From: Candidatus Babeliales bacterium
GTDB taxonomy: Bacteria; Babelota; Babeliae; Babelales; JBFXEV01
Length of the DNA stretch: 64,000 nt
Direction of reading: 5' to 3'
Assembly: GCA_050179755.1 (NCBI GenBank)
Contig: JBFXEV010000001.1
Coordinates: forward strand, 1,097,994-1,161,993
In this document: positions 3,178 through 4,077 of the stretch, one piece after another
How the letters are laid out: each line of letters opens with the position of its first letter
How positions within the stretch are numbered: position 1 is the first letter of the stretch
Position numbers and translations under genes: made by a program
Notes under the pieces: generated by a model
Databases searched by the model: none
Told to the model about the DNA's origin: nothing
Seen by the model: only the letters and a program-made list of their open reading frames with translations

Positions 3178-3207
3178 TTGCTTATCGAGCTTTCAATAAG
3201 TTATAGT
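3178..3207 (+). promoter_or_regulatory. Sigma70-like promoter for the hairpin-RNA array
   Basis: TTGCTT (3178-3183), 18 nt, TATAGT (3202-3207); predicted start falls at the 5' arm of unit 1. Confidence 0.55.
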
Positions 3208-3210
3208 ATA

Positions 3211-3550
3211 AGTAGGAAGTGGCTTGAAGAGTAGTAACTTGATACAAGTTATGAGATCTCCCAAAAGAGAGGCCTTAAAGTCCACTTCCTACTAAAATTG
3301 ACATATAAGTTGGAGATATTTAAGGTGTTTTTAACTGAGGTTAAAAGGCGAGTGAGTAATCAGCACAGTAAATATCTCCTCTAAATTGGGAAACGTTAAC
3401 AGGCGTTCTTATGCATTTATCTTTAAAAGGAGACAATGAGTAATGAATCTTAAGTGACGTTTCCCTCTAAATTGGGAAACGTAACAGGCGTTCTTATGAA
3501 TTTATCTTTAAAAGGAGACAATACGTAATGAATCTTAAGTGACGTTTCCC
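3211..3550 (+). ncRNA. Array of four end-paired small RNA units (3211-3293, 3312-3379, 3388-3465, 3474-3550), family unknown
   Basis: Each unit is closed by a 9-12 bp stem (agtaggaagtgg/ccacttcctact; ggagatattta/taaatatctcc; gggaaacgt/acgtttccc twice). Units 2-3 and 3-4 are joined by the same tctaaatt linker; a T-run follows unit 4; no ORF on the + strand. Confidence 0.6.
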
Positions 3551-4077
3551 TTTATTTTTTTAAACATTCTAAGCACTGATTGTTCGCGAGTGGGAAGCTC
3601 GCTCATATCTAATTTTATCCAACGTAATTCTTTTGATTCATGATTTTGTATAACTTGCTCATCGCTGGTTACCTGCAATAAAAACCGTATATCATAATGA
3701 TCATGCGCAGGTTCATGTGTGCGCTCAGGGATTTGATGGATATCAATATCAAAAATTTCCAATGAAACCGGCTCAATGCCGCGTATGCCAGATTCTTCTT
3801 GCGCTTCTCTGAGTGCTACTTTGAGTACGTCAGTATCGCCATCACAATGTCCGCCAAGTTGTAGCCACTTATCAAGTTTGGTGTGGTGCAAAAGCAAAGC
3901 ATGCGTGTGAGCTTTATTGAGTATAAATGCAGAGCCTGTAATATGGCCTATTGCAAGCGTACGTTCAAAGCAATTAGCATATGTGTTGATAAACTTGATC
4001 GTACGTTCTTTATATTCAGTTTCTTCATGTGTGGGATGATATGCCGCAAGAAGTTTAAGTAGTTGATTTCTATGCAT
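3535..4077 (-). CDS. NUDIX hydrolase
   Basis: HITGSAFI..LLLHHTKLDKWLQLGGHCDGD...ALREAQEESG Nudix box, H.HYDIRF; likely start 4077 (track starts 4113). Confidence 0.9.
   Translation of the reverse strand: MHRNQLLKLLAAYHPTHEETEYKERTIKFINTYANCFERTLAIGHITGSAFILNKAHTHALLLHHTKLDKWLQLGGHCDGDTDVLKVALREAQEESGIRGIEPVSLEIFDIDIHQIPERTHEPAHDHYDIRFLLQVTSDEQVIQNHESKELRWIKLDMSELPTREQSVLRMFKKIKGNVT

Follow-up and report, generated by a model that had tools for sequence, protein, structure and literature searches.

Four tandem end-paired hairpin units between prfA and a convergent NUDIX gene, a candidate structured RNA in a Babeliales genome

What kind of element is a chain of four hairpins lodged between the 3' ends of two convergent genes: a small-RNA gene, the end of a messenger, or repetitive DNA? 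The question is raised by a 64,000-nt stretch of DNA, hereafter the window, from a Candidatus Babeliales bacterium (contig JBFXEV010000001.1, positions 1,097,994 to 1,161,993). In it, the 638-nt gap between prfA, encoding release factor 1 (RF1), and a convergent NUDIX hydrolase gene holds four consecutive units (U1 to U4), each closed by a perfect inverted repeat. The window appears to come from the small chromosome of a Dependentiae-type bacterium (TM6, Babeliales) that is intracellular and associated with protists (its proteins map to a contig of 1,526,461 bp), the named homologs of its NUDIX protein and RF1 being labelled ‘Candidatus Babeliales’, ‘Candidatus Dependentiae’ or ‘candidate division TM6’. 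To our knowledge, no regulatory RNAs have been described for the phylum Dependentiae, and the RNA biology of these obligate protist symbionts is unstudied; titles and abstract openings of the Dependentiae literature yielded nothing relevant on small RNA, non-coding RNA or palindromic elements. The array is real, non-random and unclassified. Our preferred reading, held tentatively and with somewhat less than even confidence, is that it may be a lineage-specific structured plus-strand RNA which, grown by tandem duplication, would supply the rpmE-prfA transcript with its 3' region and terminator.

A non-random chain of end-paired units

The four consecutive end-paired units described in the initial annotation of this DNA were recovered both by a repeat finder and by a separate scan for inverted repeats (coordinates are collected in Table 1). 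The window contains 10 such inverted repeats in total, which is near the shuffle mean of approximately 10–12, and 4 of the 10 follow one another in a single unbroken chain. Three or more units in a row were found neither in 100 block shuffles of the window nor in 867,057 bases of fetched loci (see below), and the array is therefore regarded as non-random. U3 and U4 form an 85-nt tandem duplicate with 74 of 78 positions identical, differing by one indel, three substitutions within the hairpin and one in the tail, in agreement with the recent duplication that had been proposed; all other pairs of units share 53–64% identity. The internal motifs and the linker said to be common to U2–U4 were also confirmed. 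Three copies of the motif TTAAAAGGMGA are present in the window, all of them in these units, against 0.10 expected (none of 100 shuffles reached three); the same linker appears twice, and TCTAAATTG lies directly 3' of both U2 and U3. The TATAAGT of the U1–U2 linker is found again 5' of U1 as a direct repeat, and the T-run reported after the last unit is present.

All four units fold better on the plus strand than their shuffled counterparts, with z-scores of -5.13 (U1), -4.59 (U2), -3.6 (U3) and -3.8 (U4) and with none of 200 dinucleotide shuffles as good. The minimum-energy fold of U1 (-31.5 kcal/mol) is a three-way junction with the inner hairpins UAACUUG/CAAGUUA and UCUC/GAGA. Two-hairpin junctions of this type had been drawn for both U1 and U2; the prediction stands for U1, whereas the plus-strand minimum-energy fold of U2 differs from it. 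With RNAalifold applied to the four units together, the closing helix was the sole shared structure, and the interiors folded differently.

The units have common borders. TAAGTA, TAAGTT or TAAATT precedes the first G of the stem, and TACTAAAATTG or TCTAAATTG follows its last C, with the exception of U4, which meets the T-run. The stems were aligned by anchoring on these shared flanks (TAAGTW/TAAATT before, TNCTAAA(A)TTG after), and in this alignment the stem positions p0–p7 are Watson-Crick paired in U1, U2 and U3 (24 of 24 cells), with six of the eight positions (p2–p7) differing among the units and changed on both sides. The closing stems are thus self-complementary yet different, as the annotation had stated. 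The interiors of U2 and U3 are recognisably related, with 50 of 78 positions identical (shuffles, 42.4 +/- 2.4). U1, which agrees with U3 at 52 of 83 positions (47.3 +/- 2.6), is not demonstrably homologous to the other units. Functional RNAs have variable but compensated stems and conserved unpaired motifs, and transposon-type palindromes show the opposite; the compensated variable stems and conserved inner motifs observed here would point to selection on structure and argue against the class of repetitive extragenic palindromic (REP) elements or miniature inverted-repeat transposable elements (MITEs). The structure argument rests mainly on the comparison of U2 with U3 and U4. Furthermore, the three substitutions between the U3 and U4 hairpins map to two adjacent, facing positions of a predicted inner helix, where the pair C3414-G3438 is lost and the neighbouring pair G3498-C3524 is gained, so that the length of the helix is kept.

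No match to the region was obtained when the whole window was scanned with Rfam 15 at the gathering threshold. At E-values up to 10, positions 2850–3650 gave only four chance-level matches, the best being a Tetrahymena snoRNA (24.3 bits against a threshold of 100) and the lone one from the tRNA clan being mt-tmRNA (17.9 bits, E = 4.5); ARAGORN found no tRNA or tmRNA genes in 2800–3700. The annotators’ failure to recognise a known RNA family or a tRNA consensus is thereby upheld. Ten open reading frames (ORFs) of at least 20 aa overlap the interval, all of them 73 aa or shorter and none within the array longer than 31 aa. Pfam at E-values up to 1 assigned no family to the five of these ten that were tested, and a coding interpretation of the interval was dropped. 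Neither blastn nor a covariance model built from the four units (R1) detected further copies in the 64 kb: with filters off, the model found its own four units, the next-best match in the window scoring 15.3 bits (E = 1.1).

Loci from relatives were collected by a profile search of genome contigs with a 33-sequence NUDIX alignment. This gave at least 80 loci, with the window's own genome absent and a best NUDIX identity of 68% among the matches listed. None of the 80 fetched loci contained prfA by tblastn, and none was syntenic among the matches listed. Searching the same 80 with positions 2897–3600 by blastn returned no match with E below 0.14, and R1 gave no array-like match in them (best E = 5.1). 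By protein search, a closer relative carries prfA and NUDIX genes with products 90% and 75% identical on one 36,274-bp contig, and in a second relative the corresponding pair (85% and 68%) shares a 16,421-bp contig; synteny is thus probably retained in both.

Table 1. Features of the prfA–NUDIX interval and its flanking genes, in window coordinates
Feature	Position	Strand	Description
rpmE (L31)	1545-1763	+	Pfam Ribosomal_L31; upstream of prfA
prfA (RF1)	1826-2896	+	NCBIfam and Pfam RF1, E = 2.5e-138
G+C-richer patch	2897-3044	+	Directly 3' of the prfA stop; GC 0.45-0.51 against 0.28-0.35 in the flanks
Three 14-nt direct repeats	3023-3101	+	AACTATCAATATAT type; in the A+T-rich leader
Further end-paired element	3046-3143	+	CAGGTTTA ... 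TAAACCTG; fold and palindrome
Perfect 18-nt A/T-rich palindrome	3149-3166		AAGTTTTTATAAAAACTT; inverted repeat
Proposed promoter	3178-3207	+	TTGCTT, 18-nt spacer, TATAGT; 8/12 consensus, weak
Unit 1 (U1)	3211-3293	+	Inverted repeat with 12-nt perfect arms (12-bp closing stem)
U1-U2 linker	3294-3311	+	Contains CTAAAATTG, a perfect TTGACA (3298-3303) and TATAAGT
Unit 2 (U2)	3312-3379	+	11-nt perfect arms; carries AGGTGTTTTTA, TTAAAAGGCGA and GTAAT
U2-U3 linker	3380-3387	+	TCTAAATT
Unit 3 (U3)	3388-3465	+	9-nt arms; long imperfect hairpin, closing stem 9-11 bp
U3-U4 linker	3466-3473	+	TCTAAATT, same as U2-U3 linker
Unit 4 (U4)	3474-3550	+	9-nt arms; tandem duplicate of U3; candidate terminator hairpin
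T-run	3551-3561	+	TTTATTTTTTT; directly 3' of U4
NUDIX hydrolase gene	3535-4113	-	Pfam NUDIX; homologs; C-terminal alignment

Strand, transcription and the end of the NUDIX gene

U2, U3 and U4 fold 3.6–6 kcal/mol better on the plus than on the minus strand, with 3, 5 and 5 G-U pairs, respectively, on the former against 0, 1 and 1 on the latter, and only on the plus strand does a U-run follow the last hairpin. The folding bias and the U-run together favour a plus-strand RNA, though not decisively.

A dedicated sigma70-like promoter, which had been placed 5' of U1, was not borne out: the site agrees with the consensus at only 8 of 12 positions and went unreported by the promoter scan, whose single call (3396–3423) falls inside U3. 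Sites matching at 9 or more of the 12 positions numbered 58, 47 and 68 in real sequence, compared with 54.9, 52.9 and 55.9 in shuffled sequence. Elsewhere in the window, TTGACA-16-TATGAT (24097–24124) matches at 11 of 12 positions just 5' of a tRNA at 24147; this near-consensus promoter shows canonical sigma-70-type use and can serve as a yardstick for other promoter calls.

Classic terminators consisting of a hairpin and a T-run are found elsewhere in the window, for example at 14460, 10786 and 39157. Downstream of the prfA stop and before U4, a single hairpin with a T-run was called, a weak one of five pairs (2953–2966), and shuffles of this region yield 0.5 terminator-like sites. Given the lack of a terminator between prfA and the array, read-through from prfA would be at least as likely as a promoter, and the simplest reading is that rpmE-prfA transcription enters the array and ends at U4. 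The co-oriented rpmE and prfA may form the transcription unit from which such read-through would come, and the 9-bp closing stem of U4, with five G-C pairs, is followed by TTTATTTTTTT.

At its 3' end the array runs into the convergent gene. The last four codons and the stop of the NUDIX gene (G-N-V-T-stop) come from the 3' arm of U4, so that array and gene end overlap by 16–27 nt. The closest NUDIX homologs, with C-termini reading KKIKNR, EKIKI and KKIS, terminate 1–2 residues beyond K-I-K.

What the array could be

In the reading we prefer, tandemly duplicated hairpin modules would have been kept foldable by selection and would most likely be transcribed as a long 3' portion of the rpmE-prfA mRNA, with possible help from a weak local promoter. 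Termination would take place at the U4 hairpin with its U-run, both of which overlap the convergent NUDIX gene at its 3' end, and the stacked hairpins would act in cis, in transcription termination, in protection of the 3' end against exonucleases and in insulation of the convergent genes from one another. We infer the transcription, its start point, the termination at U4 and any function. Each module would, in addition, show a copy of the ribosome-binding-site (RBS) consensus, UUAAAAGGAGA, half-buried in a small hairpin. Judged from 53 ORF starts in the window, the usual RBS of this genome is (T)AAAAGGA, located 4–8 nt 5' of ATG (examples are the genes starting at 14521, 38279, 41549 and 54234). 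The motif UUAAAAGGAGA resembles this consensus and is followed in U3 by ACA-AUG; it is half-paired in the apical hairpin of U3, where GGAGA is paired with UCUUU and AAAA forms the loop. With RBS copies displayed in this manner, 30S subunits, or a factor recognising such sites, could be further ligands of the RNA.

A number of observations weigh against this reading. All 32 closing-stem pairs are Watson-Crick, with zero G-U, and U1 is strand-symmetric (-31.5 kcal/mol on the plus and -32.6 on the minus strand), which could indicate a DNA-level or strand-neutral constraint, or a recent palindromic origin. Homology between U1 and U2 is undetectable (44 of 83 positions identical against a shuffle mean of 44.5), and the apparent covariation could, as a result, partly reflect a comparison of unrelated hairpins. 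As a 77-nt hairpin, U4 lies outside the definition used by the terminator scan, which demands a loop of 3–8 nt, and for this reason was not called; its T-run, moreover, is the complement of the NUDIX K-K-I-K codons, a motif present in the closest NUDIX homologs. The closest locus among the matches listed (L001, NUDIX 68% identical) is without the array, and its convergent gene begins 7 nt after NUDIX. A single hairpin is enough for termination, and four modules with an RBS-like motif are unexplained by the cis model. Finally, the array is a putative transcript, and its conservation is presumed.

The alternative closest to the initial annotation is a promoter-driven polycistronic precursor, cut in the AU-rich linkers to give four stable trans-acting RNAs of 68–83 nt, for instance decoys that mimic an RBS. 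We consider it unlikely. It would account for modules that are closed independently and parted by the repeated single-stranded linker TCTAAATTG, for inner motifs conserved where stems vary, for a shared motif that is the usual RBS of the genome, for the plus-strand bias with its terminal U-run and for the lack of a match to any known family. However, its promoter is the weak, uncalled site discussed above, and the perfect TTGACA sits between U1 and U2, not 5' of the array. The interiors of U2 and U3 fold differently, the trinucleotide GGA is unenriched (6 in the 357 nt of the array against 5.57 in dinucleotide shuffles, 255 of 500 of which had 6 or more), and processing would have to be assumed. 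Nor was a toxin, defence or RNA-binding gene found beside the array with Pfam/NCBIfam or with PADLOC on seven neighbouring proteins, the latter giving generic ankyrin matches only and no families for NUDIX. A polycistronic small-RNA gene of a Dependentiae-type symbiont, cut at AU-rich linkers into four end-paired decoys that would titrate 30S subunits or a regulator, is on this evidence quite doubtful; if true, it would represent a modular sponge family that is new and shares no sequence relationship with the CsrB/Rsm RNAs. The array resembles CsrB, RsmY and RsmZ as a putative RNA of several hundred nucleotides with repeated hairpin modules, a purine-rich RBS-like sequence in each and a candidate terminator hairpin at its end. 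It differs from them in lacking Rfam matches (at E-values up to 10), GGA enrichment and a strong promoter, in carrying its motif mostly in the stem and not in the loop, and in the size of its modules (68–83 nt against approximately 20 nt). The idea of a CsrA sponge was dropped, given the GGA count and the inner GGA of U3 and U4, which is base-paired in the minimum-energy fold; no match to the CsrA family by Pfam was seen among the 53 window proteins scanned. Tandem direct repeats, a putative single RNA that would be cut into units and a candidate terminator after the array also recall the ToxI-like antitoxins of type III toxin-antitoxin systems. ToxI-like repeats are about 36 nt long and near-identical, whereas the units here measure 68–85 nt and are strongly diverged, with U3/U4 as the only near-identical pair; no same-strand toxin gene follows the array, the next gene being the convergent NUDIX, and PADLOC reported nothing relevant. 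A type III antitoxin array was accordingly rejected. Tandem paralogous small RNAs, of which LhrC1-5 and PrrF1/2 are examples, and small RNAs derived from 3' untranslated regions are likewise comparable in their serial duplication at one locus and in a possible origin from an mRNA 3' end that shares its terminator. Known tandem small RNAs have their own promoter and terminator each; in the array, the U-run is confined to the last unit and there is no convincing promoter.

It is also rather improbable, in our view, that the array is selfish or neutral DNA, that is, palindromic repeats similar to REPINs, MITEs or Rickettsia palindromic elements, or a variable-number tandem repeat, residing in a permissive convergent gap without an RNA function. 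This would suit the perfect Watson-Crick inverted repeats, the strand symmetry of U1, the recent 85-nt tandem duplication, the overwriting of the NUDIX stop by the arm of U4 where homologs end sooner, and the arrayless L001. The location would suit it as well: extragenic palindromes are typically located between convergent 3' ends, and REP elements, bacterial interspersed mosaic elements (BIMEs), REPINs, Rickettsia palindromic elements and MITEs all resemble the array as tandem hairpin units in such places. REP-type elements can, furthermore, stabilise upstream mRNA and overlap gene ends. However, there are zero further copies in the 64 kb (blastn, R1) and none in the 80 other loci. Mobile palindromes keep their terminal repeats, whereas here it is the termini that vary (p2–p7) and the interior motifs that are kept, opposite to the REP-type pattern, and the stems remain perfect in spite of a divergence between units to approximately 60% identity.

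Two further explanations appear more remote. The array could be the remnant of a translation-initiation region of a lost gene, such as a thermometer- or attenuator-like leader, duplicated after decay, or could contain tiny leader ORFs such as MSNES in U3; we consider this very unlikely. In its favour, U3 contains AAAAGGAGACA-ATG with a spacing like that of real genes of this genome, the UCUUU/GGAGA pairing across the AAAA loop would fit such a leader, and a distant blastn search of a phage collection gave a 37-nt match (E = 4e-4) to a gene-start region of one Acinetobacter phage, which is represented there by two records. A 37-nt match was also found in one record of a plasmid collection (E = 4e-3); we judge these matches to be probably chance or generic RBS similarity. 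Against it, the mini-ORFs are not conserved: that of U3 has five codons, U4 has lost its start codon (ATGAG to ATACG), and U2 has a GTG at a poor spacing of 2 nt. The absence of Pfam families for the five ORFs tested and of any ORF above 31 aa in the array speaks against it too, and the compensated closing stems would be unexplained. A site acting at the DNA level, with hairpins or cruciforms recognised as attC-like recombination, replication or partition sites or as operator arrays, seems highly improbable. The strictly Watson-Crick stems would suit it, and the adjoining leader has perfect palindromes of 16 and 18 nt and three 14-nt direct repeats. However, the 53 scanned window proteins include no integrase, transposase, replication or partition gene product; the units start with GGA and end with TCC, a misfit, by eye, to the attC end consensus; and U2–U4 show the plus-strand folding bias. 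AGGTTTA (11 in the window against 9.9 expected) and the palindrome motif GGTTTATAAACC with up to two mismatches (5 against 3.2) are unenriched, and an operator motif was dropped from consideration.

If the array is transcribed and conserved, it would give the Dependentiae (TM6) their first candidate for a structured RNA with a regulatory or 3'-end role and would be a clean case of RNA growth by serial duplication of a hairpin module with compensated stems. If it is a private tandem repeat, it would be an ordinary feature of an intergenic gap, and a warning that no dedicated gene is needed for self-complementary units, a nearby -10-like hexamer and a T-run to arise.

The leader, the wider gene content and other intergenic gaps

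The leader between prfA and the array (3045–3180) is itself unusual, with a further end-paired element, palindromes and direct repeats. The fold of 3040–3180 has a z-score of -3.70, with none of 200 shuffles as good, and the end-paired element includes a perfect 16-nt palindrome at 3047–3062. The G+C-richer patch that precedes the leader has no significant structure (fold z-scores of -0.85 and -1.2), and Pfam assigned no families to its three ORFs. It could be the relic of a lost gene; in other bacteria, prmC often follows prfA.

The proteins encoded in the window are rich in ankyrin, LRR, WD40 and patatin-like types. Eukaryote-like proteins are encoded at 31076–33916, 46735–48510, 51990–53603 and 60145–61614; among them are two with patatin/PLA2_B lysophospholipase domains, one of which is fused to ankyrin repeats, a WD40 beta-propeller protein and a protein whose NCA2 domain is associated with ATP synthase regulation. 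Ankyrin-repeat proteins number at least ten across the 64 kb, and this abundance, together with the eukaryote-like proteins, fits a host-associated lifestyle.

Other gaps in the window stand out as well. A G+C-rich, strongly structured 91-nt element at 42335–42425, in an 893-nt gap (42134–43026), folds with -39.5 kcal/mol on the plus strand (z-score of -4.9) and -43.4 kcal/mol on the minus strand (z-score of -4.4) and is flanked by hairpins with T-runs on both strands (approximately 42285–42349). Rfam gave nothing for it at E up to 1, and it may be an unclassified RNA or a bidirectional terminator cluster. The interval 58996–60144 (1,149 nt) is flanked by genes for a class II tRNA-synthetase-like protein and a WD40-repeat protein; no ORF in it reaches 100 aa, and Rfam gave nothing for it at E-values up to 1. 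Finally, an 80-nt sliding scan revealed a structured A+T-rich stretch at 17153–17252, with z-scores of about -5 on both strands; the gap it occupies is bounded by a superoxide-dismutase-like gene on one side and a gene for a branched-chain amino-acid transporter on the other.

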